Shown here: positions 39,421-59,236 of the stretch, in pieces
Numbering within the stretch: the first letter of the stretch is position 1
Layout of the letters: the number at the start of each line of letters is the position of its first letter
Assembly (NCBI GenBank): GCA_976226885.1
Contig: OZ320314.1
Span: forward strand, 67,332,001-67,396,000
Origin: Iphione sp. A-MEVVRFRX5
Taxonomy: Eukaryota
Direction: 5' to 3'
DNA length: 64,000 nt
The notes under the pieces: generated by a model
What the model was told of the DNA's origin: nothing
Databases searched by the model: none
What the model saw: the letters and a program-made list of their open reading frames with translations, nothing else
Position numbers and translations under genes: made by a program

Positions 39421-42400
39421 GATGATATACCTAAAACAGGTGTCCGTTCACTAGGGTACTATTTAAATTACCGTAGGATTTCCCACTTCTCAAGAATGAC
39501 ATGACCACACTTAGAATAATGAGATTTATTCAAAGAGAGATACAATGTGTCATGTACAACAGCAAGGTGTGAAATGGTGACATCCCTGAGGAACCCCTCT
39601 TATATACACCCACTATCCTCAGGATGCTACTCCACCCGTCCCCATACCACACACTGCATGCCAATGCCCATGCCGCATGCCGCACATCATGCCACATCAG
39701 GCACATCGTGGCTACACTGCCCTCCCTCTAGAGGGGTGCTTGTCTCAAGCATTCAACACAGAACCAGTCCAACTTGAACCGGCAACAGAAAAACATCATG
39801 TGCACTGGACATCAACCAGACCCCAGGCAACATTCCTGTCCACAACTCTCTGGAATCCACCTGGACATGTCCATCCTCTGTCGCCACCTCATGCCAGATA
39901 CCTAGCCTCGACCTTGGGTGAGGACTACCCCATGGTTGGAGTGCCACCTAGCAAACTCCAACCCAGTCACCAGTGGCCATGCTCTACGGAAACGCAGGTT
40001 TTGGTGGATGGAGACCTTGACCTGTCCCTGTGTCAGCACCTGCAGGTCCAGGGCACTGCCATATTCAAGCAGCTCCCACCCAGCAGGAAGTGTTGTCCCG
40101 GCCAACACCAGGTGGGCGGTCTCCCAAACATACACCAAGTCTGGGATGGCCTCCTCCAGACCAGCAGGGCTGGAGATGTCCTGCAGTGTCCATGGGGTGA
40201 CGTGCCCACATGCACTCTGACCAGTGTATTCAGGGCTGAAGTCTGAGAGGGCAGCCAGGCAGACACAGGCAAGGGGGGGACCCGGTAACCTGAGGTGCAC
40301 CAGAGGGTTACCCATGCTACGGCCAGCCAGCCCCACCAGCACAGGCATCGAGTGTCCGGGAGCGTTCAGTCCTGTTTTGCCTCTCCCTGTTCTGGGCGCA
40401 TCACCATTGTCCCCCTCGGGCTCCTCTGGTGCTGGACAGGTAGGAGTCGCCTCTTGCTGATCAGAAGTCGCAGCATCCCCGACCGGTCCTGCCTCGCCTC
40501 TCTTTGCCCTGGGTGCAGCACCATCATCCCCCTCCTGTTCTTCTGTTGCCAGAAGGGTGGGTGTTGCCTCCTGCTTATCGGACGTCACAGGGTCAATGAC
40601 CAGGGATGTGTTCCCTTGGGGATAGGTGGCTGTTGCTCCATGACCACCAATGTCTTCTGGTCGGTCCCCTCCTCATCCATGGCAGTGGGTTGCTCTGTCA
40701 CAGGTACCTCTGGACTGCCAGACCCGTATCACTGACCCTGCGAAGTCCCGGGCACTCCTCCTTCATCCTTGTCTGCTGCTGCATGAGCAACCCTACACTG
40801 CCTGAGGTTCCTCTGTGAGGGGCTGATCTGGGGTGGCCATGGGGGTGACAGAGTCCCTTGCTGCTGTCGTGCTGACCACCTGCTGCTCCCTTCCATCCAT
40901 GGCTGGTGGGCCAGTGTTGAGGACAATGCTACAAGGAATAGCCCCTCAGGACCCTCCTCCTCCAAATCATCCTCAAACAGCTCCTGGAAGTCCATCTTCT
41001 CTGCATTGCCCCCCCCCCCCCCCGAGTCTGAGCTGATATCCTTGATCATGTAGACTCCGACAGTTTGCCCTCACCAGCCGAGTCATCAGTGACACCTCCT
41101 GTTGCGCTGCTGGGAGGGGTGTCTCTGGGGGGTGGTTTGGCTTGCTCTGGTCTTCTCAGCTAGTGCCCTACCCCGGGCCGAAGGCCACCTGCCGGTGGCT
41201 GGCAACCCCAATGGTGTAGATGGCCCGGGGTGCCGCCCTGCTGGTATATGGAAGGCCGCCCTGCCCCACCCACCGGTCTCTGGGGTTGCCTAGCACCGGC
41301 ACTTCCCGATGGCCAGAAGGTGCCTGGCAGTCGCCTGACATGAGGGAGGGCTCTGTCGAGTGGCCTGCCTCTCCTGAGGGGGTATCCTCCTGCAGGGACC
41401 CCTCCAGAGTCCTTGGTCTCCATCGTGCTGGTGTCGAAGAGGTCCTGCTCATCGCAGCTGGTATTGTGGAATGCTGAATGACCTCCCTTTGGCATGGCCA
41501 GGACGGCCGCTCGGATGTGCCCTCCTCAGAGGAGCTGGGTGGGAGTGCCGGTGCCTTGCATTTCTTTCCCAAGTATCCTGTCTGGCATCGTGGGCAGTGT
41601 GGGGCCGAGTCCCCCCAGCCTGGAGGTGCCCGGCAGATGATGAGGAGCCTGGCCTAGGCTGGTGTGCGGGGGCCCGGGTGCTGGATGTAGGGGCCACCAC
41701 AGGGGGGGGATTGCCTTCAACTGCCGTGCTGGGGGTGCTGTCCCAGTACTTTCCTTGGTGGTTGGCCCTCTGGCTGGAGGAGTCTGCCCCAGATGAAATG
41801 GTGTCTGTGATGAGGACAAGTCTTTCTTTCGCGCCTTCCCCTCCTTCTTCCGCACCAACTTTAAGTGATCCCCATATTCTTCTGGGCACGGGACTAAATC
41901 TCCCCTAGTCAGATTCAGGCTGTGAAACTGGAGGTACTCAACGTTGATGGACTGGGACAGTGCACGGAGAGCCGCCACCCCATGGATCTTCTCGAGGTGG
42001 TGCTTCCAATCCATCCTCTGGTGGAACGCCAGGTTCTTGCATTTGACCTCTTGGCAGATCCACCTGAAGCCCTCCCGGCGGTGGACATCCTGTGCATGGC
42101 CCTAAAGGTTGGACAGCTGCACGAAGCCCACTCCACACTCCTTGCAGATGTGGGGGGACTCGTTGCTTCATCATTGCTGCTGGGGGCAGGCACGACCTCA
42201 TCCTCACTGCTGGAGGGGAGTGTGGGCTGCTCCTCATCTGTTAGCTGGTTGGCTGTCGATACTTCCTCGGTCATCCCCCAGTCGCACGGGGACAGGACAA
42301 CATGGCACTCTTTCATGCTGCGATGGTGTTGTTCATCGATGGCACTGTGGCAGTCATCCAATGAGGTGTTGTCTGAGTGCCACACACTGCTGCTGCATGG

Positions 42401-43043
42401 CAAGCTACTGCAGCTTGGTGAACTGGTGTGGCATGCGTCAGATGCTGCACGGTATGATGAACCCAGGTGCAGTGGCATGGTCCGAGCTGCAGAGAAAGAA
42501 ACACCATGAGTGCTGTGGCATAACGGTGATGTCCCTCTGATCATATTCCAAATGGACTGGAATTACCCTGCAGCATGCCCCAACCCAGCTACCCAACGTG
42601 GCTTACTACTGCCGCTATGCCCGGTATTATCACCCATAATACACGATCGTTTCACCTCACTGCAGGGATTTGATGCTGCTGCTGTTGGATCACTATGCCC
42701 AGGTGGATTATCCACAACTTCCTGCCACTTGCTAGCTGCCGTTGCATTGCCGCAAAGACATGAATCCACGTGGGAGGGTGCCCGATGTGCTCCAGTGGCA
42801 GTCCAGTTGGCAAATGCTGTGGTATTTAAGCTGATAGTCGTATATTGACAACACAACTTTATGAATGCAGCCTTTTCATAATACACTAGCGGACTTGGTA
42901 TCTTCACCTCTTCACGTCTGATGCAAACAACCAATGTATATACTACTAGACTATCCACACCCGTTCAGAAAGCATGAAAACCGTGCTCTTGAAAATACTA
43001 ATTGACGTCTGAGGCATACAGCTTTGTACAAGATTAGTTTTTC
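38171..43043 (+). repeat. Segmental duplication copy 1 (matches 52914-57786; offset 14,743)
   Basis: Near-identical ORF sets in both copies; roughly 15 substitutions and small homopolymer indels counted by eye. Confidence 0.97.
39525..42566 (-). pseudogene. Decayed 2xC2H2 zinc-finger accessory cassette, copy 1 (80-bp 5' intron 42566-42487, ATG 42478, AATAAA 39530-39525)
   Basis: HICKECGVGFVQLSNL*GHAQDVH and WICQEVKCKNLAFHQRMDWKHHLEKIH at about 41980-42150. In-frame TAG at 42104-42102, frameshifts, and a TpG/CpA-rich composition. Confidence 0.6.
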
Positions 43044-43417
43044 TGGTCAAACAAAGTAAGTGCAGGAGTACTGGACTCGGTGCACATGCACTAAGGGTCG
43101 CTGTGGTACCACAGCCACCCCTGGATTTAAAACAAACTACCCTGGAGTCTCAAAGATCTCTTGTGATTGGATCGGCAGCACTCGGCTGTGGTCCCACAGC
43201 CCAAAAAGTGATACTTTGCTCTCTCCTGGTTGGTGGGTTAGTTGAAAGGGCTGTTAAAGAAGGTAACAATGTATTTTCTTACTCTGTTACTGACAGATGA
43301 TTGGCTAGTGCCTGGATTGGAGAAAAGATATAAATATGAGAGTGAACCTGAATAAAGACAGTTTTGAATCAGGACTCAGAGTTGTCAGTTCTTTATTGAA
43401 CCCAAGTAGAAACTACA
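43043..43417 (+). mobile_element. Gypsy 5' LTR, truncated by loss of its first 103 bp
   Basis: Matches 58043-58417; ends ACTACA; contains TATAAA and AATAAA; followed by the PBS. Confidence 0.92.
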
Positions 43418-43418
43418 C

Positions 43419-43436
43419 TGGTGTCAGAAGTGGGAT
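43419..43436 (+). promoter_or_regulatory. Primer-binding site TGGTGTCAGAAGTGGGAT, complementary to the 3' end of tRNA-Leu
   Basis: Begins 1 nt after the LTR-terminal CA; reverse complement ATCCCACTTCTGACACCA is the known 3' end of metazoan tRNA-Leu(CAA). Confidence 0.88.
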
Positions 43437-43448
43437 CCACTGTACATC

Positions 43449-44311
43449 ATGGCTACCAAGTTTGTGGCAGTTGACGACGAGGTACAGTTGCGCGTACCGG
43501 ATGCGGACGAAGAAGAGGAAGCTGAACCTTACGTGTTAGCCCCAGAGGAGCCACTGCGCACCAACGCCATGAAGCCCGAGCGATTCGATGGCAGCGTAGT
43601 CGACTGGGACAGCTGGATTGTCCAGTTTGTCGAATGGGCAGATGCATGCAAGTGGAGTCCGAACACAAGAGCTTCAGCACTGGCTCTGTCGTTGACTGGC
43701 ACCGCCCGAATGTACTTTGGAGACCTCCCATCGGAGGACAAGGCCGACTTTGAGTCCAGGGTAGCCGCCTTGGAAAAGCGGTTTGGGCGTCGACGTAATC
43801 GAGTGACGGCTATGCAAGACCTGTCCACAATCCGCAGGCAGAAAGGGGAGGATGCTAAGGGGTTTGCTGACAAAGTCCGACGACTTGTACGCACCGCGTA
43901 CCCCGATGTGAGTGCGGAAACACGAGAATTAGCAGCAGTGTCGGCCTTCCAACGGGCACTCCCAGACGACCTGCATTTGAAATGTTTAGAAGCCCAATGC
44001 AAGACCATGGAGGCTGCACTACAGGTAGTGGAGATCCAGGAGCGGTTCCCCGCGAGGAGAGTGAATGCCGTACAAGCAAGTGGCAACAAGGATTCTAACA
44101 GCCCAGCACCCAAGGACATGGTGGAAGTCCTAATGCAGGAGTTTGCCTACGGGAGGAAATGCGACCTCAGAGGTCTCGGCCCAGGGACAATTTGTGTTTC
44201 ATCTGCAAGCAACCGGGTCACTGGAAGAGAGATTGCCCGAAAGCCCCACAGCAAGCATCGAACGCTACAGGGCCCAAACCATCGGAAAACACACAGCAGT
44301 CGGCTCAGTAG
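43449..44311 (+). pseudogene. gag: Gypsy gag with one frameshift near 44145 ahead of the CCHC zinc knuckle
   Basis: MKPERFDGSVVDWDSWIVQF...LALSLTGTA capsid-like region. CFICKQPGHWKRDC (44195-44236) lies in the -1 frame relative to the gag ATG; TAG at 44309-44311. Confidence 0.85.
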
Positions 44312-47300
44312 GCCAGGGGACACCGACTGCATCTGTCCACCGGGAGGTGATAATGGAATACGGCCAGGGACCACATCTCAAGGTAAGCTGTGGTGGGAGG
44401 ACACTCCTACTGCTTATTGATACGGGTGCTGAAGTTTCCATTATGAATCCCTGTGTGGTCCCTGGCCCAGTTGTTAAGAGGGCTGCTGTGAAGGTTATGG
44501 GGGTAGGGGGTCATATCCTGCCAACGGTAGGGAGAGAGGAAGTTCAGGTAGGGATTGCTGGAAAAGAATTCAAACACCACTTCCTGTTAGCAGAGATAGA
44601 AGGGGATGGGATATTGGGGGCAGATTTCTTGACCCAGCATGGCACTGTCATTGACCTGTCAAAGGGTGAGGTTTTGTTTGGGGGGACCCCTAGGGGGAAG
44701 GAACAGACCAGAGGAGTTAAGGTACTGAGGGCAGCCTCCGATATTACGGTTCCCCCTGGGGAAGGGGTGGGGATCCCAGTGTCTCCCAGTGGAGAGGGCC
44801 CATTCTTGGTAGAGGGCTTAGAGGAGGGTCGGTTATTACAAGGGGTGGTAGGAGTGCGCTGCATTGTAAGCCAGGTGCTGCCCGTGTGGAACACTGGGGA
44901 GAGGGAACTGTTGATCCAACAGGGGACATCCCTAGCTCTTGGCTCGCCAGTGCAGAGGGAGGAGGTTACTGACTGCCCTCAAGATCACCCCCTGAAAGTG
45001 TCTACCACCAAGGTGGGGGCAGGAACCGTGATAGATGAGTTGATGGCCACTAAGACAGTTCACCTCACGGGAGGGGAACAGGGAGAGCTGCGGGTGGTGC
45101 TAGAACAGCACAGGGGGGCCTTTGCACAACACAAAGGTGATTTGGGTTGTACGGACGTGGTGCAACATCGTATTTGTACGGGGGAGTCAGGTCCCATTAA
45201 ACAGCAACCCCGGCGCCTGCCCCTGTCAAAGAGACAGGAAGAACAGCAACTAGTAAGGGAGATGGCAGAGGCCGGGGTCATTGTCGAGAGCCAGAGCCCC
45301 TGGGCAAGTCCCTTAGTCATGGTACGCAAGAAGGATGGGACTACTCGTTTCTGTGTCGACTACCGGAAACTAAACCAACAGACGAAGGTTGACGCGTATC
45401 CCCTACCCCGAGTTGATGATTCGTTAAGCGCACTGGCGGGAGCTCGGTACTTTTGCTCGTTAGACTTAGCATCGGGCTATTGGCAGGTTAAGATGGATCC
45501 GCGGGACCAGGAAAAGACGGCCTTCACCACATCCTCTGGGTTGTACGAGTTTACGGTGATGCCGTTTGGGCTGGTCAACGCTCCTGCTACGTTTGAGCGC
45601 TTGATGGACACGGTGCTCAGGGGACTGACCTGGGAGCAATGCCTAGTCTATCTGGACGACGTATTGGTATTTGGGCGGGATTTTGGGGAGACGCTAGCTC
45701 GGTTGGATCGGGTGCTCTCTCGAATTGAGGCTGCTGGCTTAAAATTGAAACCGGCTAAGTGCCGTTTGTTCCTTGAGGAGGTTCCTTTCCTGGGACATCG
45801 GGTGTCCTATCGGGGGAATTCAGCGGACCCCGGGAAGGTGCAGTGTATACAGGAGTGGCCGAGGCCGACCTCCACTACCGAAGTAAGAGCCTTCCTCGGA
45901 CTTTGTTCCTACTACCGCCGACTGGTGGCTCATTTTGCCGACCTAGCAGCACCCCTACACCGGCTGACTAGCCCCCGGACCCGGTTTTATTGGGGCCCCG
46001 AGGAAGAGGAGGCCTTCGAATCTTTGAAACAGGCATTGCAGGCCAGTCCCGTGCTGGGCTACCCGATGCCTAAGGGACGTTTTTATTTGGACACAGACGC
46101 CAGCAATGTAGGGCTTGGAGCCGTGCTTTCCCAAGAGCAGGAAGGCCAGGAGGTAGTCCTCGCATACTTTAGTCGCAGCCTCACGTCACCGGAACGGAGG
46201 TATTGTGTGATGCGGAGGGAGCTGCTGGCAGTGGTAGCTGCTTTGAAACATTTTCATTTTTTTATATACGGGCAGGAGGTCACGGTGCGGACGGACAATG
46301 GGGCGGTTAGCTGGTTGAGCCGTATTCGGGACCCTGAGGGGCAGTTAGCCCGATGGCTGGAGAGAATCGGTCAATATCACCTCCACCTTCAGCACCGGCC
46401 AGGGCGCTTACATGGTAATGCGGATGCTCTATCCCGAATGCCGTGTAAACAGTGCAAGCAAGAGCATGGGGTCGAGGTACGAGTCGTCACCCGAGGCTGC
46501 ACCCAAGGGGCGGCAGATCGCGCCCTTCGGGGTGCGCAGCTGGACGACCCAGATATTGGACCTATCCTGACGCTGAAGGAGGATACGTCTGGTAAGCCAG
46601 AGTGGGAGAACATTTCTCCCTTGTCAAGGGCGGCCAAGAAACTATGGCAGCAGTGGGACCGTCTGGTGGTCCAAGAGGGGCTGCTATACCGGCGGTGGCA
46701 TGAGCTCGAAGCCTCAAGAACACGCTTGCAGCTGGTACTCCCTGCGCAGCGACGAGTCAAGGCTATCGAAGAAATCCACCAAGGCCGGATGGGTAGCCAC
46801 TTAGGGGTAGACCGTACCACCTTCTTGGTGTCTTTGGCATATTATTGGCCTGGGATGCAACAAGATATACAAAACTTCTGTGCGAAATGCCACTGTGCCC
46901 TCCTCACAGTAAACCCCTTCCGCCCACAGACGACGCTGCGCACTTATGTGTCCGGGGAGCCAATGGAGAGATGGTCCATGGACGTGGCCGGTCCATTCCC
47001 CCATACCAAGCGGGGCAACTGTTATATCTTAATGGTGGGGGACCACTTCACTAAATGGCTAGAGGCCTTCCCACTGCCTGATCAGAGGGCAACCCGGATA
47101 GCACAAGTACTAGTGGAGGAGGTGGTCTCTCGGTATGGATGTTTCATGGAGCTCCACAGCGACAGAGGGACCAACTTCTGCGGCGAAGTTGTTTCTGCTC
47201 TGTGCGAGTTCCTGCAAATCCAGCGAACCAAGACGACCCCTAGGCACCCCCAAGGGGACGGATTTATCGAAAGAAGCTTTCGCACGCTAGGGAAAATGAT

Positions 47301-47874
47301 TAAAGCCCACTGCCATGATACCGACGACGACTGGGACGAAGCGCTCCCACTGCTTATGATGGCGTACTGAGCTTCCCCCCAAGCCAGTACTGGCTTCACA
47401 CCTAACTTCCTGATGTTCGGTCGGGGGGTGGTCCTGCCAGCGCATGCGATGGATGGCCTCCCTCTTAGCGAGTGGGAGGGGAAGGAACGGGTGACTATGC
47501 CAGAGTGGGTACAGCGCCTTCAACGCCAGCTGAAGAGGGCTTACCAGACGGTCCGGGAGCACTTGGTAAAGGCTGCACGGACGCAGGCTAGAGGATATGA
47601 TCACCGGGCAAAAGGGGAACCCCTACAGGAAGGGGACGCGGTGTGGTTACACGAAGCTCAACCACCCAGAGGGAAGAGCCCTAAAGTATACTTGCCCTGG
47701 ACGGGTCCATGGCTCGTCACCAAGGTGCTGGACCCAGAGCGATTGGTGGTCCAACGGGCAGCCCGGGCTCGCCCCAAGGTGGTGCACTGGAATCGCCTAC
47801 GACTGTATCGTGGGGAGATACCTCGTTGGATCGCGTCTTGGCTGCGGCGCGCGAATAAGGAAGGGAGCTCGTAA
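44284..47874 (+). pseudogene. pol: Ty3/Gypsy pol (PR-RT-RNaseH-IN) with a single nonsense codon at 47368-47370
   Basis: LLIDTGA protease; FCVDYRKLN, MPFGL, YLDD; DTDAS and RRELLAVV RNaseH; H..H..C..C, MDVAGP, SDRGTNF, GFIER integrase; WTGPW GPY/F motif. YRAS has become Y*AS (CGA>TGA) and the frame stays open to 47874. The 5' boundary (-1 shift from gag) is approximate. Confidence 0.95.
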
Positions 47875-47914: not shown

Positions 47915-48295
47915 CAGAGAGCTCCAGGGAGGGGACACTGGACATCCCCGGGTACGGGACCCAATAGTTCCAGAGGGGGAGGCTGGACATCCATGGGTGT
48001 GGGACCCAAAAGCTCCAGAGGGGGGAGGCTGGACATCCTCGGGTGTGGGACCCAAAAGCTCCAGAGGGGGAGGCTGGACATCCCCGGGTGTGGGACCCAA
48101 AAGCTCCAGAGGGGGGAGGCTGGACATCCTCGGGTGTGGGACCCAAAAGCTCCAGAGGGGGAGGCTGGACAGCCCCGGGTGTGGGACCCAAAAGCTCCAG
48201 AGGGGGGAGGCTGGACATCCTCGGGTGTGGGACCCAAAAGCTCCAGGGGGGGAGGCTGGACATCCCCGGGTGTGGTACCCAAAAGTTCTAGGGGG
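47915..48295. repeat. G-rich 45/46-bp tandem repeat, about 8.5 units, after pol
   Basis: gggacc unit starts at 47956, 48001, 48047, 48092, 48138, 48183, 48229 and 48274. Confidence 0.95.
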
Positions 48296-48706
48296 GAGAA
48301 AAAGGGGGGAGCTCCCGGTTTCGGAAGGGCAGCCCTGCGGCCACTCGCAGTGTAGGCCCGTGGTAGCTGAGAAGTTGACAGACCATGAAGGTGGAACTGA
48401 CGGTGGAGCCGGCCTGGGCCAGAAGGAGACGGAGGTCTGACCAGGCTTTGTCCTCTGGGCGAGCCGGCACGCTATCAGGGGTAGAGCCAACCCGGACCAG
48501 AGTGTAAGAATTAGAACCTGGTCAGGTTATGTCCTCTGGTCGCTGCTACGGGATGACGAGCGGGGTGTTTATAGTTAAGTCTGAGAGCGAATGGAACATA
48601 GAGCGAACACAAGGGACAAATCAGTTAGCTGAAATTTATTTCAAGGTATGTCGGCCACGCAACTACAGAGTATTTAGCATGGGGAGTATAATTGCCATTC
48701 AAAGTC

Positions 48707-49576
48707 CTATTCCTCATCGGAGGAAGATACCAGAATGGGGCAGAAGGGGGCGTCGCCCCAACGAAGCTGACGATACCAGGCTGCCAGGGCGGGAGTCAAA
48801 ATCGCCGAGAAGGGCACATGACCTCCCGGAGGGGAAGTCCCCAGGGGTGAGGAGCCGCAGGAGACGTCATCGCCTGTCTCGGGGGTAGTGCATTCTGGCC
48901 TCGTGACAGCCAGAGACGGAGGCAGTACAGAGTCTTTTCCTGACGGGGCGGGTGACGGCCCCGGGCTTGGAGAGGAGCGTCCCGATCCATCCGCTGGGGG
49001 TGGTGACGCGCCCATCACGGAGAGGTCCTGGTGGGATCCCCAGGGGTCCAGACGACTGCTGGTAAGGGATGAGGGGCTGTCGGTGCTATACCCGGAAGCA
49101 CTGGAGGAGGGAGAAGCCGGTGGGGGCAGCGGGGTGGTGTAGCAAGCAGCCCAGTCTGATGGGGCGGGCATCGTTGGCGGGGGCCGCGCCGAGCCAGGAG
49201 GGGCGACTGGGCGTACCACCAGGTCAATCACGTGAAGCGGTCCCAGGAAGATCAGACGACCCGGAACGGACAAGATGAAGGGGGCATCTATGATCTCATG
49301 GGTGCCGGAAACTCGTACCACCGGCCCTTCTGTATGAATGTTCACGCCAGAGGGAGTTGACCCGGGCAGGGTGGGTCGATAGCGGAGCCTGGGGAAGAGA
49401 AAATAGGCAGGAAAAATGAAGATGGGTCTGGCTGACACTAAACCCCAGGAAGGGGCGATGTTAGATAACACTTAGAACGAATGGAAGTAGAGGAAGAGTT
49501 ATCCAAACACTCACAGGCGATAAGGCCGAAGAGCGGTAGCAGGAAGGTGCCCAAACGCGGTCCCTCGACTGGTCAT
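48707..49576 (-). CDS. Gypsy antisense accessory gene, coding exons 49576-49515 and 49388-48707, about 247 aa; 5'UTR intron 49707-49590
   Basis: GTGAGT donor at 49514 and long-pyrimidine ccccAG acceptor at 49389 join in phase 2. The upstream intron has a GTATCC donor, an actaat branch-like motif, a T25 tract and tttcAG. Protein ends ...PILVSSSDEE*. Confidence 0.68.
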
Positions 49577-49806
49577 GGCTGGGTTTAGGCTGAAAAAAAA
49601 AGGGAGGAACCCGTGAAAAAAAAAAAAAAAAAAAAAAAAACGATTTGTCATTAGTTCAGCTAGTTCAAAGATGTTAAACAGTTGCCATTCCTACATAAGA
49701 TGGATACCTGTAGAACTGGGGTAGCTGGAAGGGGTAGCTGGAAGGATAGAGAAGCCTGGTGAGGTGCATTAAGAGTCCAGATGAAGCAGGCTGGCCGTAG
49801 CCCATC

Positions 49807-50164
49807 TTATTTATATTTGGGGGGAGCGCAGTGAGCCAAGATGATTGGCTACGGCGGGCAGCGAAGATCGTGTATGTGGTGCCACAGATATCATTGGCGT
49901 TCGAGCGATTGGCTGGGAGGATAACCACTTGTACTGTGGTGCCACAGAGATCCAACATAACGGGAGATTGGTGGGATCGGGGGAAATAACCGATACAATG
50001 TATCAGGTGAACGGGCTGTGGAACCACAGGCGGGGAGGGGGTGTCGCCCTCTGGAGGGAGAACGCAGCGAAAGTGCCTGTGGTGCCACAGCCGAAGGAAG
50101 GGAAATAGGGTGGTGTAGCACAGTTTTGTCCTATCCCTACCAGTCCCCTAATGATAATATAAAA
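49807..50164. promoter_or_regulatory. Putative divergent internal promoter of the Gypsy element
   Basis: TATAAAT on the minus strand (49813-49807) and TATAAAA on the plus strand (~50158-50164) flank several ATTGG (CCAAT) boxes and four CTGTGG-NN-CCACAG palindromes. Confidence 0.62.
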
Positions 50165-50736
50165 AGAATGAACCTTCAGCAGTCATAGAGTAAGCAGTTT
50201 CGCTGCGGGCCCACAGATGAGATACGGACGCGGGACACGGGATCTCGCGGGGCGCGAGAGAACCCGTGGTCTCGCGAGACGTGATCAATGGCGGCCCGTG
50301 GCACCACAGCTGGCCACGTGAGGGAGAGAAGAGGCTGAGAAGAACAGCGGGGACGCCGGGGGACAGTGCCAAAAATAAGTCTTTCTGTGTGAACACATCC
50401 GACGGGGCATTGAGAAACAGGAGGACGATCGTGGGCGTGGAACCACAGACCACAGTCTCGGGCAGACACTGCGGAAGGATCGAGTGACTGGGCAAGGAGC
50501 AGCAGTCGCCATCACCGGACTGTGGCCGCGTCCCGCACCTCCATCTCCGACGACAGGTAAGAGCGGCTGAGTGACCACTTCAAGGCAGCCAGCTTGTTGT
50601 CCGTGGTACCACAGTGATTGTCTGCCATTGACTGTTCATCTCTGTGTGTTGTAGTCTGTGGCCCCACGTCCTGACCTAACCGGTACTGTCAACGAGCTTG
50701 TGGTTCCACAACCACCCTGCCTGGCCGTCCCTCTCT

Positions 50737-51498
50737 ATGGCAAGTGGCATGCCCCGGCAGAAAGTGGCACGTCCCCCGCCGCCCCAGGTGGAGGAAGGAG
50801 AGCCCCTGCCCCCTGGTACAGCTTGGTGCGAGCTCTGCACACCCCACCGGGTGTACTGGGCGGGGGAGTCCTTGGAGCGCCATCAGAAGGAGCAGCATGG
50901 GGGCCGTCGACACCGACAGATGGACTGCCTCTTCTGTCCCAGCGTCCTGGGCGAGCCGGGCACCTGGCTCGCCCACTTGTGGCGGCGCCATCCGTGGGTT
51001 GTGGAGAGGGGATTGACGGCCCCCGCCTACCGCAGCCTCTTCGACCATCAACAGGGCGACGCGGGGGAACTTTTCGTGCCCGATGACAACCGGGCCGACG
51101 TCATCATCCGAGCCCGACAGCTCTCCGCCACTCTGGGTACCTTTATGGGGCCGGCAGAAGCAGACGAGATCCTGGAGCGTCGACCGACCCTCCCCGAGCG
51201 GCGCGTCGTCTGGGGGCGACAACTGCCTCCTCTCCTGCCTGAGCACGGCGCACCTCGGACACCGGCGGCCAGACCCCCACCCTGGTCTCTCGGACCATCG
51301 TCTTCGTCGGTAATGGAGTCCACACCCCCGCCGGAGCCCCAGCCGCCCCATACTTCTGGCCGAGCCTGCTGGCGCACCTCACCGGCCGCTGCTGCCGTTG
51401 GACGTCCCGCTTCCCCCTCCGACTCTGGGGAGGGCAGCGTAGGGAGCGATCGCACTCCGCCCGTGCCTCCAGCTCCTGCCGGGCAGGGGTATCTCTGA
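50737..51498 (+). CDS. Gypsy sense accessory gene: two C2H2 zinc fingers plus a Pro/Ser-rich tail; 5'UTR intron 50557-50654
   Basis: First ATG at 50737. CELC-x14-H-x4-H and CLFC-x12-H-x4-H. Upstream cag|GTAAGA donor and tgtgttgtAG acceptor. Confidence 0.75.
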   Translation: MASGMPRQKVARPPPPQVEEGEPLPPGTAWCELCTPHRVYWAGESLERHQKEQHGGRRHRQMDCLFCPSVLGEPGTWLAHLWRRHPWVVERGLTAPAYRSLFDHQQGDAGELFVPDDNRADVIIRARQLSATLGTFMGPAEADEILERRPTLPERRVVWGRQLPPLLPEHGAPRTPAARPPPWSLGPSSSSVMESTPPPEPQPPHTSGRACWRTSPAAAAVGRPASPSDSGEGSVGSDRTPPVPPAPAGQGYL

Positions 51499-51499
51499 G

Positions 51500-52345
51500 A
51501 TGCACCACAAGCGCCCTATGCCTGGGGCCGAGGTGTATCTCCCGTCACCGGAGGCTCGTGGGGGTCAACCAGAGCCGGCAACAGTGGGAGACGAAGCAGC
51601 AGCGCCACTCCAGGGACGCCCGCGTCAGTCGCTAGTCTATTGCGGGGGGGGGCCATCCCTCCTGACCCCTGACTGGAGTCCGGCCGCCCTCCTCGACACC
51701 CTGACGGCTTGGGAGGCCTCTGGACACCCTCATCCATCCAGCGATCGACCCTGGGAGGCAGCCCTCCCGCCAGGACACCTTCAACGACTGGCAGAACGGG
51801 AGCTCACCACGCCTGTGCTCGGCCCGCTGTCTCGTCGAGTCCGGGAGATTCTGGACGGCCGAGTGCCACCCTACCCGGCGGTACGGCGAGCCGTCATGGT
51901 TCCCACTATGGTACGTCTTCCCCAGCGGCTGGAATGGCCCCCTCCCCGCTGGATGGAGATGAGCCCCACCTCGCGCTTCATCGCCAGTTCCTCCTTGGCG
52001 TGGGTTCTGGCCCTGGCGGAGTCGGAGGCATCGCCGCAGCACCTCATCGACCCCCTGGTCAGGCAGCCGGTCCTCGCGTTGGAAGGGATGCGGATCCCTG
52101 ACCGGCCTGAGTGGGGCGACCGTGAACGTGTCACCCGCTGGCACAACCGCTCCATCGAAGCCGCGACCAACCTCCAACCAAGACCCGCGTCCGACCTACG
52201 CGACGACGGCAGCCTCGAGGCGCGAGGCCTTCGACACCTGGGAGCGGGAGGCGCAGGCGGCGCGGGCCCAACAACGAGCGGAGGATCCCACTGTGTGGGA
52301 CCTTCTGGAGGCCCGCCCCCCTCAGCAGCGTCGCACCAACACTGA
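51500..52345 (+). CDS. Second sense accessory ORF, 281 aa, unknown function (may be the frameshifted continuation of the zinc-finger ORF)
   Basis: ATG lies 1 nt after the TGA of the zinc-finger ORF; long open frame with a globular-looking middle (WEAALPPGHLQRL...RFIASSSLAWVLAL...RWHNR). Confidence 0.55.
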   Translation: MHHKRPMPGAEVYLPSPEARGGQPEPATVGDEAAAPLQGRPRQSLVYCGGGPSLLTPDWSPAALLDTLTAWEASGHPHPSSDRPWEAALPPGHLQRLAERELTTPVLGPLSRRVREILDGRVPPYPAVRRAVMVPTMVRLPQRLEWPPPRWMEMSPTSRFIASSSLAWVLALAESEASPQHLIDPLVRQPVLALEGMRIPDRPEWGDRERVTRWHNRSIEAATNLQPRPASDLRDDGSLEARGLRHLGAGGAGGAGPTTSGGSHCVGPSGGPPPSAASHQH

Positions 52346-52647
52346 TGTGATGTGGACGGAGGAGTAGAACAGCCGACCTCCACAGGGTGGTGAGTAGGGG
52401 CCCGAGCGGTTAAAGAATGTTTTTTTATTTTGAGTTGGTGTCGTTGCTTGGGCCTCAAATTCCACGTGAGACTGATATCATCCCAATGATCAAACTTTCC
52501 TCCGAGAGAGTCAGGCAAGATTCAGAGTTTACGTAGAGGTCAAGTTTTGCCCAACACGGGCTTCTCCGTTGTTGAATTCAAAGTATGATGGTGTTTTTTT
52601 TTATATGATTGGTTGGTTGAACTTTTGCGGCCTTAAGCCCCCATACT

Positions 52648-52813
52648 TGATATGACTGTTTCACTGAACTGCCACGGCCGTAAGCCTTACTTCACATTCA
52701 GAGGACTACATACCTCCACATCTGATATGACTATTGCACTGAACTATCATGGCCGTAAGCCTTAGTTCATTTGATATGACTGTGTTACTGAACTACCACG
52801 GCCGTAAGCCGTA
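52648..52813. repeat. Three copies of a 42-bp motif tgatatgact...actgaact..ca(c/t)ggccgtaagcc(t/g)ta
   Basis: Copies at 52648, 52723 and 52772. Confidence 0.9.
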
Positions 52814-52913
52814 GTTCAAGCCTATAAGACTGCATGCTCAGGGACACTCGGATACGTTTGGGATTAGATGCATTGTAAAATTTTAGCAGGTGTTAAGTAA
52901 TGATGGCGAGAGA

Positions 52914-54163
52914 TACATATAGGAGTAGATTGTGATGCACATGGAGTTATTGGCATGGTCGAAGTTGTGGGAATTTTGGACACTTTGGGAGGGGGGCTGC
53001 AAAGAATCATCCTCTTTTCCAGATCAAATGAGGGCCTTTTGTACAGTTTTACAGCATTGGATCGATGCCCACTCATGGAATTGATGGCCTATTCATCAAA
53101 TGAGTTCTCGTAGAGGGTGGTGTAACATGTCACTTTGCCTGAGTGCCCTGATATATTTTTACCTTCGGTACTAAGCCCTCCAGGCTGAATTATTGACACC
53201 ATGTATCCTGACAATTTGTTGATTCTTACGTGTTGGATGATGAACATTACATTGCCATTGACATTTTGCATAGGACACTTGTAAAAACATCCCACTCTGG
53301 GTACAGCATCCAAATTAGCTCTGAAAATTTTCACAACACATCTTTCATTATCAGGCTGGCCATAGTGTTTGACGACCCTGGGGGCTGCTTTAGATGTTAC
53401 TTTTGCTGTTACAGTTTTGGCTACTCTGCCATTGTATTGTTAATATTTGGGACTCTTTCTCGACCAAATGGGTACTGTTCTACCATCAAAGTGACATGTC
53501 TTTTCCCCAGAATCTAAACACCGTACAATTGTAAAAATACACTGCATGTGACAATGCTTGGGCTGTTTCAAATCCAATAACACCTGATTCCCATAGGTGT
53601 GATTCTTTGTCAAGAGTGATAGGTCTGCTCGAATGGGTTGGACTAGCACACCGCATCCAATGAAACACTTGCGTCTAGCGTCCAGAGCAACATGAAATCG
53701 TTTAAAGTTGACCTCATCCTGCTTTAGAAGCCAAATATTGGATCTCCCCATAACATCTCTCATGTAGCGCTCTATAGATGCTGCTATGTTGGTCAGGGTC
53801 CCTGAAAAATATAAATAATATCCATAAGATTCTGGGGCAAATACTGCCCTTAGATCTAAGAATCTTAAAACGTACTACATGTACTTACCAGGAGGGTATG
53901 CAGACCCATCCCTTTTCCTAATTTTGGTTATGAATCTTGACAACCAATAATCTAAAGGGTCCAAATCATCTGTGTCCAAAGCAGGAGCCGGCCCTTCGGG
54001 ATCCTGTCTTGATCGTGAATATTCATTTTGCCTGGTGCGCCACTCCTTAAATATACCATGTTACACTGGGATCACCCTCAAGGCTCTGGATTTCTGGAAA
54101 TCGATCACTTTGGCCTTGATTTGGTTTATCTATGTTTGCAGGGTGAAGGCATGAGTGCCTACT
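52914..54163 (-). pseudogene. Crypton-type tyrosine recombinase pseudogene, copy 2, C-terminally truncated at the duplication breakpoint
   Basis: Same motifs as 37929-39420; lacks the last about 80 codons. Confidence 0.72.
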
Positions 54164-54267
54164 GATGATATACCTAAAACAGGTGTCCGTTCACTAGGGT
54201 ACTATTTAAATTACCGTAGGATTTCCCACTTCTCAAGAATGACATGACCACACTTAGAATAATGAGA

Positions 54268-57200
54268 TTTATTCAAAGAGAGATACAATGTGTCATGTAC
54301 AACAGCAAGGTGTGAAATGGTGACATCCCTGAGGAACCCCTCTTATATACACCCACTATCCTCAGGATGCTACTCCACCCGTCCCCATACCACACACTGC
54401 ATGCCAATGCCCATGCCGCATGCCGCACATCATGCCACATCAGGCACATCGTGGCTACATTGCCCTCCCTCTAGAGGGGTGCTTGTCTCAAGCATTCAAC
54501 ACAGAACCAGTCCAACTTGAACCGGCAACAGAAAAACATCATGTGCACTGGACATCAACCAGACCCCAGGCAACATTCCTGTCCACAACTCTCTGGAATC
54601 CACCTGGACATGTCCATCCTCTGTCGCCACCTCATGCCAGATACCTAGCCTCGACCTTGGGTGAGGACTACCCCATGGTTGGAGTGCCACCTAGCAAACT
54701 CCAACCCAGTCACCAGTGGCCATGCTCTACGGAAACGCAGGTTTTGGTGGATGGAGACCTTGACCTGTCCCTGTGTCAGCACCTGCAGGTCCAGGGCACT
54801 GCCATATTCAACCAGCTCCCACCCAGCAGGAAGTGTTGTCCCGGCCAACACCAGGTGGGCGGTCTCCCAAACATACACCAAGTCTGGGATGGCCTCCTCC
54901 AGACCAGCAGGGCTGGAGATGTCCTGCAGTGTCCATGGGGTGACGTGCCCACATGCACTCTGACCAGTGTATTCAGGGCTGAAGTCTGAGAGGGCAGCCA
55001 GGCAGACACAGGCAAGGGGGGGACCCGGTAACCTGAGGTGCACCAGAGGGTTACCCATGCTACGGCCAGCCAGCCCCACCAGCACAGGCATCGAGTGTCC
55101 GGGAGCGTTCAGTCCTGTTTTGCCTCTCCCTGTTCTGGGCGCATCACCATTGTCCCCCTCGGGCTCCTCTGGTGCTGGACAGGTAGGAGTCGCCTCTTGC
55201 TGATCAGAAGTCGCAGCATCCCCGACCGGTCCTGCCTCGCCTCTCTTTGCCCTGGGTGCAGCACCATCATCCCCCTCCTGTTCTTCTGTTGCCAGAAGGG
55301 TGGGTGTTGCCTCCTGCTTATCGGACGTCACAGGGTCAATGACCAGGGATGTGTTCCCTTGGGGATAGGTGGCTGTTGCTCCATGACCACCAATGTCTTC
55401 TGGTCGGTCCCCTCCTCATCCATGGCAGTGGGTTGCTCTGTCACAGGTACCTCTGGACTGCCAGACCCGTATCACTGACCCTGCGAAGTCCCGGGCACTC
55501 CTCCTTCATCCTTGTCTGCTGCTGCATGAGCAACCCTACACTGCCTGAGGTTCCTCTGTGAGGGGCTGATCTGGGGTGGCCATGGGGGTGACAGAGTCCC
55601 TTGCTGCTGTCGTGCTGACCACCTGCTGCTCCCTTCCATCCATGGCTGGTGGGCCAGTGTTGAGGACAATGCTACAAGGAATAGCCCCTCAGGACCCTCC
55701 TCCTCCAAATCATCCTCAAACAGCTCCTGGAAGTCCATCTTCTCTGCATTGCCCCCCCCCCCCCAGAGTCTGAGCTGATATCCTTGATCATGTAGACTCC
55801 GACAGTTTGCCCTCACCAGCCGAGTCATCAGTGACACCTCCTGTTGCGCTGCTGGGAGGGGTGTCTCTGGGGGGTGGTTTGGCTTGCTCTGGTCTTCTCA
55901 GCTAGTGCCCTACCCCGGGCCGAAGGCCACCTGCCGGTGGCTGGCAACCCCAATGGTGTAGATGGCCCGGGGTGCCGCCCTGCTGGCATATGGAAGGCCG
56001 CCCTGCCCCACCCACCGGTCTCTGGGGTTGCCTAGCACCGGCACTTCCCGATGGCCAGAAGGTGCCTGGCAGTCGCCTGACATGAGGGAGGGCTCTGTCG
56101 AGTGGCCTGCCTCTCCTGAGGGGGTATCCTCCTGCAGGGACCCCTCCAGAGTCCTTGGTCTCCATCGTGCTGGTGTCGAAGAGGTCCTGCTCATCGCAGC
56201 TGGTATTGTGGAATGCTGAATGACCTCCCTTTGGCATGGCCAGGACGGCCGCTCGGATGTGCCCTCCTCAGAGGAGCTGGGTGGGAGTGCCGGTGCCTTG
56301 CATTTCTTTCCCAAGTATCCTGTCTGGCATCGTGGGCAGTGTGGGGCCGAGTCCCCCCAGCCTGGAGGTGCCCGGCAGATGATGAGGAGCCTGGCCTAGG
56401 CTGATGTGCGGGGGCCTGGGTGCTGGATGTAGGGGCCACCACAGGGGGGGGGGTTGCCTTCAACTGCCGTGCTGGGGGTGCTGTCCCAGTACTTTCCTTG
56501 GTGGTTGGCCCTCTGGCTGGAGGAGTCTGCCCCAGATGAAATGGTGTCTGCGATGAGGACAAGTCTTTCTTTCGCGCCTTCCCCTCCTTCTTCCGCACCA
56601 ACTTTAAGTGATCCCCATATTCTTCTGGGCACGGGACTAAATCTCCCCTAGTCAGATTCAGGCTGTGAAACTGGAGGTACTCAACGTTGATGGACTGGGA
56701 CAGTGCACGGAGAGCCGCCACCCCATGGATCTTCTCGAGGTGGTGCTTCCAATCCATCCTCTGGTGGAACGCCAGGTTCTTGCATTTGACCTCTTGGCAG
56801 ATCCACCTGAAGCCCTCCCGGCGGTGGACATCCTGTGCATGGCCCTAAAGGTTGGACAGCTGCACGAAGCCCACTCCACACTCCTTGCAGATGTGGGGGG
56901 ACTCGTTGCTTCATCATTGCTGCTGGGGGCAGGCACGACCTCATCCTCACTGCTGGAGGGGAGTGTGGGCTGCTCCTCATCTGTTAGCTGGTTGGCTGTC
57001 GATACTTCCTCGGTCATCCCCCAGTCGCACGGGGACAGGACAACATGGCACTCTTTCATGCTGCGATGGTGTTGTTCATCGATGGCACTGTGGCAGTCAT
57101 CCAATGAGGTGTTGTCTGAGTGCCACACACTGCTGCTGCATGGCAAGCTACTGCAGCTTGGTGAACTGGTGTGGCATGCGTCAGATGCTGCACGGTATGA

Positions 57201-57309
57201 TGAACCCAGGTGCAGTGGCATGGTCCGAGCTGCAGAGAAAGAAACACCATGAGTGCTGTGGCATAACGGTGATGTCCCTCTGATCATATTCCAAATGGAC
57301 TGGAATTAC
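54268..57309 (-). pseudogene. Decayed 2xC2H2 zinc-finger cassette, copy 2
   Basis: Duplicate of 39525-42566 with the same lesions. Confidence 0.6.
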
Positions 57310-57940
57310 CCTGCAGCATGCCCCAACCCAGCTACCCAACGTGGCTTACTACTGCCGCTATGCCCGGTATTATCACCCATAATACACGATCGTTTCACCT
57401 CACTGCAGGGATTTGATGCTGCTGCTGTTGGATCACTATGCCCAGGTGGATTATCCACAACTTCCTGCCACTTGCTAGCTGCCGTTGCATTGCCGCAAAG
57501 ACATGAATCCACGTGGGAGGGTGCCCGATGTGCTCCAGTGGCAGTCCAGTTGGCAAATGCTGTGGTATTTAAGCTGATAGTCGTATATTGACAACACAAC
57601 TTTATGAATGCAGCCTTTTCATAATACACTAGTGGACTTGGTATCTTCACCTCTTCACATCTGATGCAAACAACCAATGTATATACTACTAGACTATCCA
57701 CACCCGTTCAGAAAGCATGAAAACCGTGCTCTTGAAAATACTAATTGACGTCTGAGGCATACAGCTTTGTACAAGATTAGTTTTTCGTTATTTTCCAATT
57801 GTATTGCATCTTTCCCTTAAACAATTCTAAAAGCTATTTTCTATGAAATACAATTAATGCATCTTTGCCTCATTGTCAACAAACAAGTTTTCAATGCACA
57901 TTTTCAATATAATTCAACCTATGTAAAATCGACTACATAT

Positions 57941-58417
57941 TGTAGTGGTATGCAGGAGCCGGCCGCGAGCTGTGGTGCCACAGGTGGAGGCACGGGCGCA
58001 CGCCCCGTGCGCAGAAGTGTGTGGTGCCACAGTCGGGGTGCACTGGTCAAACGAAGTAAGTGCAGGAGTACTGGACTCGGTGCACATGCACTAAGGGTCG
58101 CTGTGGTACCACAGCCACCCCTGGATTTAAAACAAACTACCCTGGAGTCTCAAAGATCTCTTGTGATTGGATCGGCAGCACTCGGCTGTGGTCCCACAGC
58201 CCAAAGAGTGATACTTTGCTCTCTCCTGGTTGGTGGGTTAGTTGAAAGGGCTGTTAAAGAAGGTAACAATATATTTTCTTACTCTGTTACTGACAGATGA
58301 TTGGCTAGTGCCTGGATTGGAGAAAAGATATAAATATGAGAGGGAACCTGAATAAAGACAGTTTTGAATCAGGACTCAGAGTTGTCAGTTCTTTATTGAA
58401 CCCAAGTAGAAACTACA
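57941..58417 (+). mobile_element. Complete solo LTR, 477 bp, TGTAGT...ACTACA, ATAT TSD
   Basis: ATAT at 57937-57940 and 58418-58421; no PBS follows; four GTGG-NN-CCAC palindromes, ATTGG boxes, TATAAA (~58328) and AATAAA (~58351). Confidence 0.95.
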
Positions 58418-59236
58418 ATATCCAAAAGCCAATTGAACCAAACAGTCATCTTCACTCTGCCCCCATCTACTTGAATTAGGACATTTTGGCTTCGCCTCGC
58501 CATTCTTAACCCTCTTCTCCTAATCGACACATCATAGAAACTGCAGCACGGCCACAATGTTGTGTCATACATTTCTTTTTCATTTAGTGCCTATCATTAT
58601 AAAAAAAAACAAATAAATATATAAACAGATGAACCTTGTATCTCCCTATACATCATGTTTTATGACAGAGGCCATCCCTAAAGAGGACTAGCCTATCTTG
58701 GACCAACTGAAAACTCCTCCATGCGATTGTGCTAGTTAAATATTACGTAGCTTTGACGACATGCGCAATTGTCATAGCTTCTCTGCAACATTATATTTCA
58801 CTCAGGTACGAGAGCGTTGTATCCATAAAATCTTTTCAAATTTTAAAATAAATACTTACAATGTCGATGCTTCCTTTCTCCACCAAAGGCGACTAGATAT
58901 GCATAGACAACTGTTCTGCAACAGAGACATTTGTTTATTTCTAAGCCTCCCTCCAATATGAGTAAAATGGCAAACAGTCATGAATTGGTAGATGAAAGCA
59001 CTTAGTTTTAGTCCGAGGGATAGTCCCCCAGCGGAGTCTCTCTGCAATATTAGGAATTCGAGGACAATGGTAAATGCACCTAGGTTTCATACTTTGACAG
59101 TGTTAAGCCAATACATTATATAGACCCAAAATGTTGTAGAAAAAAACGATACATGTACAGGTGCAGTTCGCACAAGAGGTACATGTATACGCAATGGACA
59201 TCCCTTTTACGGTTAAAAATTTTAGCAGATCCAATC

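Follow-up and report, generated by a model that had tools for sequence, protein, structure and literature searches.

Within a stretch of 64,000 nucleotides from Iphione sp. A-MEVVRFRX5 (assembly GCA_976226885.1, contig OZ320314.1, forward-strand positions 67,332,001 to 67,396,000; hereafter the window), a damaged Ty3/Gypsy retrotransposon carries, past its pol gene, a region with two outward-facing TATA boxes and a cluster of palindromes that recur in its long terminal repeat (LTR). The reading preferred here, to which we give a probability of roughly 0.58, is that this region, together with the genes on either side of it (the module), contains an internal divergent promoter that a dimeric factor controls jointly with the LTR, in the manner of the internal promoter (IP) and Tas protein of foamy viruses. 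The motifs, their statistics and the conservation and position of a zinc-finger gene next to the promoter are observed directly, and from these we infer transcription, splicing, binding and feedback.

The first-pass annotation had placed outward-facing TATA boxes on either side of a set of palindromes and ATTGG boxes, and the two TATA boxes were borne out: TATAWAW occurs twice in 49807-50737, against a mean of 0.03 in shuffled sequence (2 of 1000 shuffles reach two). The predicted divergent starts lie about 400 bp apart, a bidirectional promoter being defined by two divergent transcription start sites within 1 kb. All four CCAAT boxes of the region are nearer to the minus TATA box than to the plus one. 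The excess of plain ATTGG is weak and not significant, 85 of 1000 shuffles matching the count, and the longer YSATTGGY, which we take to be an NF-Y-type pattern, occurs three times with 0.27 expected (0/1000 shuffles). An imperfect inverted repeat of 18 nt (49794-49811 and 49838-49855) brackets the minus TATA box, one of its arms being a CCAAT box and the other a copy with a disrupted CCAAT core. The full LTR holds four palindromes, three GATTGG boxes and the TATA box TATAAATA at 58329, with AATAAA about 22 nt past it, and the claim that it has the internal arrangement of palindrome, ATTGG and TATA without being a duplicate stands: blastn gives no match between the two regions, and the longest stretch in common, once the palindromes are masked, is 13 nt around the first internal CCAAT box, at 49844 (9/200 shuffles). 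An origin of the internal promoter as an LTR duplicate was rejected, given that no LTR homology can be aligned. Palindromes and ATTGG boxes had also been said to alternate, which they do in the left half (49844-49971) and not in the remainder, six palindromes lying downstream of the plus TATA box. The sense promoter and its gene are very probably real.

At up to one mismatch the palindrome TGTGGNNCCACA is present 17 times in the window, with 3.49 expected and 0/100 shuffles reaching that number; ten copies fall in 49875-50710, four in the full LTR, two in the truncated LTR and one elsewhere, and none lies downstream of the minus TATA box, in the antisense leader. Its form is TGTGG-NN-CCACA, with a spacer of 2 bp in 14/14 non-redundant element sites. 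When it is written as YGYGG-Nk-CCRCR, the same spacing (k=2) is found at 14 sites of the element and nowhere else in the window, and other spacers within 0-8 yield 0-1 sites per region. Half-sites of the form YGYGGT are nearly all contained in palindromes (14 of 16; lone half-sites number two in 49807-50737 and none in the LTR and are not enriched), which fits a dimeric binder. Selection seems to act on the geometry of a dimer, and the palindromes are very probably protein-binding sites. A minisatellite origin was rejected because the flanks of the exact sites are unrelated, their identity (0.32-0.38) being below that of all 75 motif-bearing loci found outside the window (0.47-1.0). These external loci, seven viral and 68 from metagenomes, are mostly tandem repeats; none of the 75 matched ORF A, ORF B or the LTR, and one gave a weak match to reverse transcriptase (RT). 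L028, L031, L050, L074 and L075 belong to a related family of repeats in which TTGTGGATCCACAA palindromes are scattered and have AT-rich flanks, and for which no Gypsy protein match was obtained, and the viral contigs L001 (82-207) and L003 (6001-6126) have five TGTGGTGCCACA sites spaced 23-43 bp apart in a non-coding gap.

On the sense strand a transcript from the plus TATA box would begin with a long stem-loop, lose one intron from its 5' untranslated region (5'UTR) and reach ORF A, whose coordinates are given with those of the other features in Table 1. Splice sites here and below were ranked by simple consensus scores, not by a trained model, and the acceptor ranking left out any AG with another AG within 10 nt upstream. 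The whole sense leader folds with z = -2.38. Its 5' stem-loop belongs to no family in Rfam, where only a chance-level match was returned, and contains upstream ATGs at 50217 and 50288 as well as TCTCGCGAGA at 50270; the latter (50270-50279), presumably a BANP/CGCG element, lies within a 12-bp perfect palindrome and is the sole copy in the window. ORF A contains the only tandem C2H2 pattern in the window (0/1000 local shuffles), one finger at 50827-50898 (Cx2Cx14Hx4H) and another at 50926-50991 (Cx2Cx12Hx4H), both with the Cx2C...Hx3-5H spacing and a hydrophobic core, and their helices carry the residues A/E/S/R and E/G/T/A. Its features match zf-C2H2 clusters in Atlas at 0.91-0.92, and a codon model trained on the element's own gag-pol gives an in-frame signal over amino acids 1-170 and not in the Pro/Ser tail. 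No credible homologue was found among 142 candidates or 1.84 billion protein representatives, whose single match, P0001, was rejected as a repeat protein without the histidines; the finger gene family as a whole likewise has no credible match in the protein collections searched. Protein searches with ORF B gave no matches, those of the PDB gave no significant ones, and single-sequence AlphaFold models of ORF A and ORF B are unusable (predicted local distance difference test scores of 39 and 37).

Counterparts of the finger gene occupy the same position in related elements. A pol alignment scan of prokaryotic assemblies returned 34 Gypsy loci, evidently eukaryotic contaminants, of which eight have a C2H2 pair just past pol on the same strand. 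Finger searches of five such assemblies added 16 further contigs, eight with pol and eight without; all eight with pol have fingers downstream on the same strand, one of them repeating L088 and another, L145, being circularly permuted. This gives 15 distinct contigs with a finger gene 3' of pol, and those pol loci that lack a finger pair despite ample sequence on the 3' side belong mostly to distant branches. A hidden Markov model (HMM) built from seven relatives, with the window sequence excluded, puts ORF A first among 1279 window ORFs (E 1.1e-6). The ATG of the relatives' finger gene lies past a splice acceptor in L077-L081, L086 and L152, and in L087, L088 and L142 a TATA box precedes it by 35 nt. 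In an RT tree of 28 rows, left after the removal of 15 loci that were distant, short or duplicated and of four proteins that were redundant or nearly identical, the window element stands beside L083 and the long-gap group of L081, L149 and L152, with support of 86/89; this tree neither demonstrates nor rules out that the finger gene arose once. Finger 2 of L077-L080 reads R-x-D-N-x-x-R, which we take, by the usual finger code, to be a DNA-reading pattern. Given these positional counterparts, the feature is better supported than it would be from the window alone; the C2H2 pair of ORF A and its counterparts in related Gypsy elements go beyond the first-pass annotation.

Immediately past ORF A lies ORF B, in a different frame; its codon signal stays in frame up to about residue 235 and moves to the third frame near 52205 (C tail, 52212-52367). 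ORF B weakly resembles the C-terminal domain of the single finger ORF of L152: it is top of the 1279 ORFs at E 0.56, with z of 3.4-4.1 on a segment picked by eye and 1.7-2.4 over the whole protein. A likeness to L081 noted by eye was rejected as not significant. The sense side probably holds more than one ORF or a single longer ORF that has been broken into A, B and the C tail. The earlier description of a two-gene accessory module inside a Gypsy element is therefore right as to the lineage and agrees with the sense counterparts in 15 contigs, and only approximate as to the two genes.

On the other strand the structure of ORF M argues for a spliced antisense transcript. Its two introns, 49707-49590 and 49514-49389, end at the two highest-scoring acceptors of a region holding 63 AG, and their donors share first and third place among 68 GT; the exon join is in frame and yields 247 aa, against 35 and 50 aa in shifted controls and 21 aa for the unspliced frame. 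The AATAAA at 48635 is the only one on the minus strand between 46087 and 52429. Near 49769 a weak upstream ATG keeps the frame across intron 1 and would extend the protein to 272 aa, so that this intron may be coding rather than part of a 5'UTR. The annotated scheme of a short 5'UTR intron leading to an ORF on each side is accordingly kept in that introns are predicted on both strands, and amended in that the antisense gene has a second, coding intron. The antisense transcription unit is probably real; that its protein is functional is not quite an even proposition. One weak match of ORF M (E 0.008, two stops) was rejected.

The element around the module has the marks of a Ty3/Gypsy LTR element. 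Pfam finds RVP, RVT_1, RT_RNaseH, rve and Integrase_p58_C in 44134-47367, the Ty3/Gypsy domain order, and the window pol clusters with Gypsy proteins, its relatives pointing to an animal host; to these are added the TGTAGT...ACTACA ends, the primer-binding site (PBS) at 43419 and the ATAT around the solo LTR. No env family was detected by Pfam on any ORF scanned. Matches to gag were found by tblastn upstream of pol in relatives, and a copy of the PBS with one mismatch sits before gag in L152. The truncated 5' LTR is 98.9% identical to the corresponding part of the full LTR (58043-58417) and retains two of the four palindromes, ATTGG boxes and a TATA box at 43329. The element's own 3' LTR is absent from this copy, which is cut at 52914, and the enclosure of the module by two LTRs is consequently presumed rather than seen; its position between pol and the 3' LTR appears to be supported by the arrangement in the relatives. 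The full LTR at 57941-58417 was rejected as the 3' LTR of this copy: ATAT stands on both sides of it and no purine run precedes it, which identifies it as a solo LTR. No purine run of at least 10 (a candidate polypurine tract) occurs in 52301-52920.

Taken together, it is suggested that this 'complex' Ty3/Gypsy element of an animal has a divergent TATA/CCAAT promoter past pol and ahead of the 3' LTR that is now missing. In the sense direction the promoter would give a spliced mRNA encoding ORF A, the accessory protein whose pair of C2H2 fingers is conserved in the lineage, ORF B probably being its second domain or a partner; in the antisense direction it would give a spliced, polyadenylated RNA ending short of pol. 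One sequence-specific dimeric factor would bind TGTGG-NN-CCACA in both the LTR and the internal promoter, with a CCAAT-box factor that we take, by its consensus, to be NF-Y; with both factors common to the two promoters, the accessory genes and gag-pol would switch together, and the six palindromes in the leader of ORF A would allow feedback on its gene. This amounts to a loop of foamy type, in which a basal internal promoter would yield an accessory protein that acts on both promoters. As to the identity of the dimer, a protein encoded by the element is the single most likely binder and a tentative choice; some other host dimer is less likely, and Runx less likely again. An element-encoded dimer would be in keeping with a spacer of constant length, with a palindrome common to LTR and internal promoter and with the sites in the ORF A leader.

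Several observations weigh against this reading. At zero to one mismatch the palindrome occurs in 0/11 of the relatives' pol-to-finger gaps (there is one site with two mismatches), and the three relatives with LTR-side sequence show no comparable palindrome common to that side and the gap; the grammar is thus seen only in the family of the window element. Taken with the differing finger helices, its absence from the 11 gaps would also fit an element-encoded binder. The zf-C2H2_4 score of ORF A in Pfam, 17.1 bits, is below the gathering cut-off of 27, the 9-aa linker between its fingers is unrelated to TGEKP (which we take as the canonical C2H2 linker), its helix residues do not, by the usual finger code, predict a GG-rich site, and no alignment with L081 or L152 is obtained for its segment past the fingers (z -0.4 to 0.7). 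The two upstream ATGs and the strong hairpin would impede scanning to ORF A. The codon model trained on pol does not prefer the frame of ORF M, which has no credible homologue in the searches made. All 15 finger-bearing contigs come from one assembly (G001), the grouping in the RT tree is below the 95 bootstrap mark, and the copy itself is damaged in its gag frame, by a stop in integrase and by loss of the 3' LTR.

The antisense points bear most directly on the possibility, itself unlikely, that the sense arm alone is a true gene promoter and that the minus TATA box gives rise to an antisense RNA that is non-coding or incidental and may damp the element. ORF M is rich in Pro (17%) and Ser (15%) with flat GC over the three codon positions (0.64/0.65/0.64), it lacks frame preference and homologues as just described, most of the relatives' gaps are too short for an antisense gene, and non-coding antisense RNAs have been described for micropia (PMC7264820; here and below, statements about cited papers refer to excerpts of them). 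Against it stand the two top-ranked acceptors, the in-frame join that fails in shifted controls, the AATAAA shortly past the stop and the proximity of all four CCAAT boxes to the minus TATA box. The antisense gene may be specific to this family or non-coding. It is rather unlikely that, with the anatomy otherwise the same, Runx/CBF of the host is what the palindromes bind, tuning them to a single cell type as happens in retroviral enhancers, and that the finger protein has another role. Runx1 binds TGYGG cores and prefers TGTGGT (PMC2952845), and the half-sites have that core: their logo is (C)-T/C-G-T/C-G-G-T, each of the 5 single mismatches is a T>C change in position 1 or 3, and T stands at position 6 in at least one half of 12/14 sites (p = 0.0016). 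However, the cores of the published Runx dimer lie 4 bp apart, at which spacing the model already has minor clashes, and a GAG-spaced palindrome bound only one Runx (PMC2952845), whereas here the spacer is always 2 (14 sites, with none at 4) and lone half-sites are not enriched, though Runx binds well as a monomer.

An RNA target for the finger protein is improbable. It would act as Tat or Rev does, with the leader stem-loop and the complementary palindromes as response element, and govern elongation, intron retention or export of unspliced genomic RNA. The 5' hairpin, in the base region of which two palindromes lie, and the fold of the whole leader are consistent with this, as are the long RS-rich tails of L077, L078 and L080, and given that the element's DNA retains its introns, unspliced RNA would have to be packaged. 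However, four LTR and four internal palindromes lie upstream of the TATA boxes, outside the 5' end of the predicted transcripts, and any inverted repeat in DNA folds likewise. That the region represents an LTR copy in decay, or an independent insertion nested in the Gypsy element, instead of a functional part of that element, is highly improbable. The missing 3' LTR leaves room for it, as do the 13-nt LTR match and a weak likeness past the TATA box (137/2000 shuffles); on the other side, no LTR homology can be aligned, no terminal inverted repeats among repeats of at least 14 nt bracket the module, the ratio of observed to expected CpG in the module (0.73-0.79) is near that of gag-pol (0.67) and unlike that of the flanking duplicate (0.35), and the finger gene is at the same position in 15 relatives.

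It is generally assumed that LTR retrotransposons depend on host factors for their transcription; complex retroviruses are known to encode transactivators and to have internal promoters with them. In foamy viruses an IP unrelated in sequence to the LTR lies upstream of the accessory genes, and the encoded DNA-binding protein Tas/Bel1 activates both promoters in a feedback loop (PMC7390438). The window element is alike in having a second promoter before accessory genes and in the unrelated sequences of the two promoters, the feedback loop being proposed here and shown there. It is, by its Gypsy pol and the lack of a detected env, not a member of that system, and its candidate protein has C2H2 fingers; the foamy IP lies inside env, whereas the promoter described here is past pol in a non-coding gap, appears divergent and has an explicit palindrome in common with the LTR. 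That it works like IP/Tas is a prediction by analogy. Closer in lineage are the Gypsy-like Tor3b and Tor4b of the animal Oikopleura, in which an internal promoter in or after pol (Penv), mapped by rapid amplification of cDNA ends, drives a third gene, some Tor relatives splicing from the LTR instead (PMC4402516); by analogy, the short-gap relatives probably splice their finger gene from the LTR. The third gene of Tor is an Env glycoprotein, and the excerpts describe one direction and no common palindromic sites (PMC4402516). In the aORF-3R genes of plants, those of maize Grande (gene23) and Retand, an antisense accessory ORF between pol and the 3' LTR has its own promoter, and a title cited for Retand mentions an amplified tandem repeat (PMC7264820). 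These are plant elements, for which the excerpts mention no sense partner gene, zinc fingers or introns (PMC7264820), and the antisense gene compared with them here has a predicted structure, with no homologue found and no codon signal. Bdelloid rotifers, again animals, have LTR elements with family-specific third ORFs (ORF3) other than env, made from spliced messages; these are of esterase, exonuclease, coiled-coil and transmembrane types, and zinc and promoters go unmentioned in the text (PMC5408684). The GM-CSF enhancer has a dimeric Runx1/CBF site, TGTGG-N4-CCACA (PMC2952845), with inverted TGYGG cores as here and a spacer of 4 bp instead of the 2 bp of all 14 sites. Accessory ORFs are mentioned in general terms only in the excerpts of PMC8220671 and PMC2774666.

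Internal promoters, antisense accessory genes and non-env ORF3s in other LTR elements are hence already known. In the literature searched, from which most subscription papers and Repbase reports are absent, no description was found of a C2H2-pair gene 3' of pol in an animal Gypsy element or of TGTGG-NN-CCACA as an LTR motif, though such papers, Repbase reports and supplements may hold one. With an accessory zinc-finger gene that is conserved and a countable 12-bp site in both LTR and internal promoter, self-regulation becomes directly testable: the element may, as predicted from its sequence, carry its own on-switch, and solo LTRs would spread clusters of four sites through the host genome, a network that the element could control. 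More broadly, it is conceivable, though doubtful, that a wide lineage of env-less animal Gypsy elements encodes its own C2H2 regulator past pol and that in the family of the window element this protein dimerizes on TGTGG-NN-CCACA in the LTR and the divergent internal promoter, forming a self-contained feedback switch with a Bet-like antisense modulator; a Tas-like circuit with positive and negative feedback would then have arisen independently of retroviruses.

Table 1. Positions of the described features in the window
Feature	Position	Strand	Details
TATA box TATAAATA	49808..49815	-	same 8-mer as LTR TATA; predicted start near 49785
TATA box TATAAAAA	50158..50165	+	predicted start near 50185-50188
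Four ATTGG/CCAAT boxes	49844, 49893, 49908, 49967 (49844..49971)		all in the same orientation
Four exact palindromes between the TATA boxes	49875, 49935, 50017, 50078 (49875..50089)		
Six palindromes in sense leader and intron	50204, 50297, 50436, 50602, 50657, 50699 (50204..50710)		
Long predicted stem-loop at 5' end of sense leader	50190..50315	+	z = -4.35, 0/200 shuffles
Predicted sense 5'UTR intron, 98 nt	50557..50654	+	donor first of 145 GT; acceptor scores highest in a region holding 171 AG
ORF A, 253 aa	50737..51498	+	two C2H2 fingers, predicted helical segment, Pro/Ser tail
ORF B	51500..52367	+	ATG 51500 directly past the stop of ORF A, different frame; stop 52345
Predicted antisense intron 1, 118 nt	49590..49707	-	poly-T pyrimidine tract; top-scoring acceptor, donor tied third of 68 GT
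ORF M, predicted	48707..49576	-	ATG 49576; coding intron 49514-49389; 247 aa, Pro/Ser-rich
AATAAA	48635..48640	-	67 nt past antisense stop; U/GU-rich stretch next
5' LTR, truncated	43043..43417	+	without first 102 bp of full LTR; ends ACTACA before PBS
PBS	43419..43436	+	begins TGG, 1 nt past LTR
gag, broken	43449..44420	+	CCHC knuckle (44195) in a different frame
pol	44134..47874	+	order protease, RT, RNase H, integrase; in-frame stop 47368-47370 in integrase breaks the frame
Alternating tandem array, 45/46 nt	47920..48299		7 units hold a 2-mismatch palindrome variant
Full solo LTR	57941..58417	+	TGTAGT...ACTACA; ATAT target duplication
Second copy of flanking DNA 38171-43043	52914..57786	+	99.7% identity; junction 52914 cuts the element

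Around the element, the 4.87-kb duplication (38171-43043 and 52914-57786; 14 mismatches, two gaps) is a rearrangement or a haplotype or assembly duplication. Its first copy abuts the 5'-truncated LTR, and its second is followed by 154 bp and then the solo LTR. It includes a degraded, GC-rich and CpG-poor C2H2-type ORF with a Pro/Ser tail (41529-42101, minus strand; duplicated at 56194-56844, minus strand), the second-best match of the relatives' finger HMM (E about 0.001) and possibly a remnant of the accessory region of an older element. A broken reading frame at 37929-39131 (minus strand) ends in a tyrosine-recombinase-like 'SGHSGK' stretch and may resemble Crypton/DUF3504 genes. Past ORF B there are a donor-like GTGAGT at 52390, a minus-strand AATAAA at 52429, TATAAAA beside a CCAAT box at 52605 and three 65-nt repeats at 52647-52835.

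Among the other contigs, at least 16 that the pol scan returned from G001 belong to Gypsy elements, which marks this GTDB genome as contaminated with eukaryotic DNA. Scans of a viral collection with the pol and L152 proteins found no relatives, the finger alignment found nothing in five other contaminated genomes, and a sample of 301 genomes added no credible homologue of the L152 C-terminal domain. The distant Gypsy contigs L099 (6109-9255, minus strand) and L101 (13666-16833, minus strand) have an antisense ORF of about 1050 aa with tandem C2H2 downstream of pol, without a match to the finger HMM. The gap of L081 (7485-8623) has a cluster of TGACGTC(A), resembling the cAMP response element, with three CCAAT boxes and a TATA-like box upstream of its finger gene; the cluster was not seen on its LTR side. 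A C-terminal 'LGAPS' domain is common to L077, L078 and L125, and the subgroup of L142 (6702-7589), L144 (5342-6055) and L145 has a coiled-coil-like end (weak HALZ and coiled-coil matches in Pfam). Elsewhere in the window are a broken endonuclease and RT of the long interspersed nuclear element type (59226-61978, plus strand) and an open frame of 592 codons without a Pfam match (14379-16157, minus strand), basic at its N-terminus and acidic in the middle.

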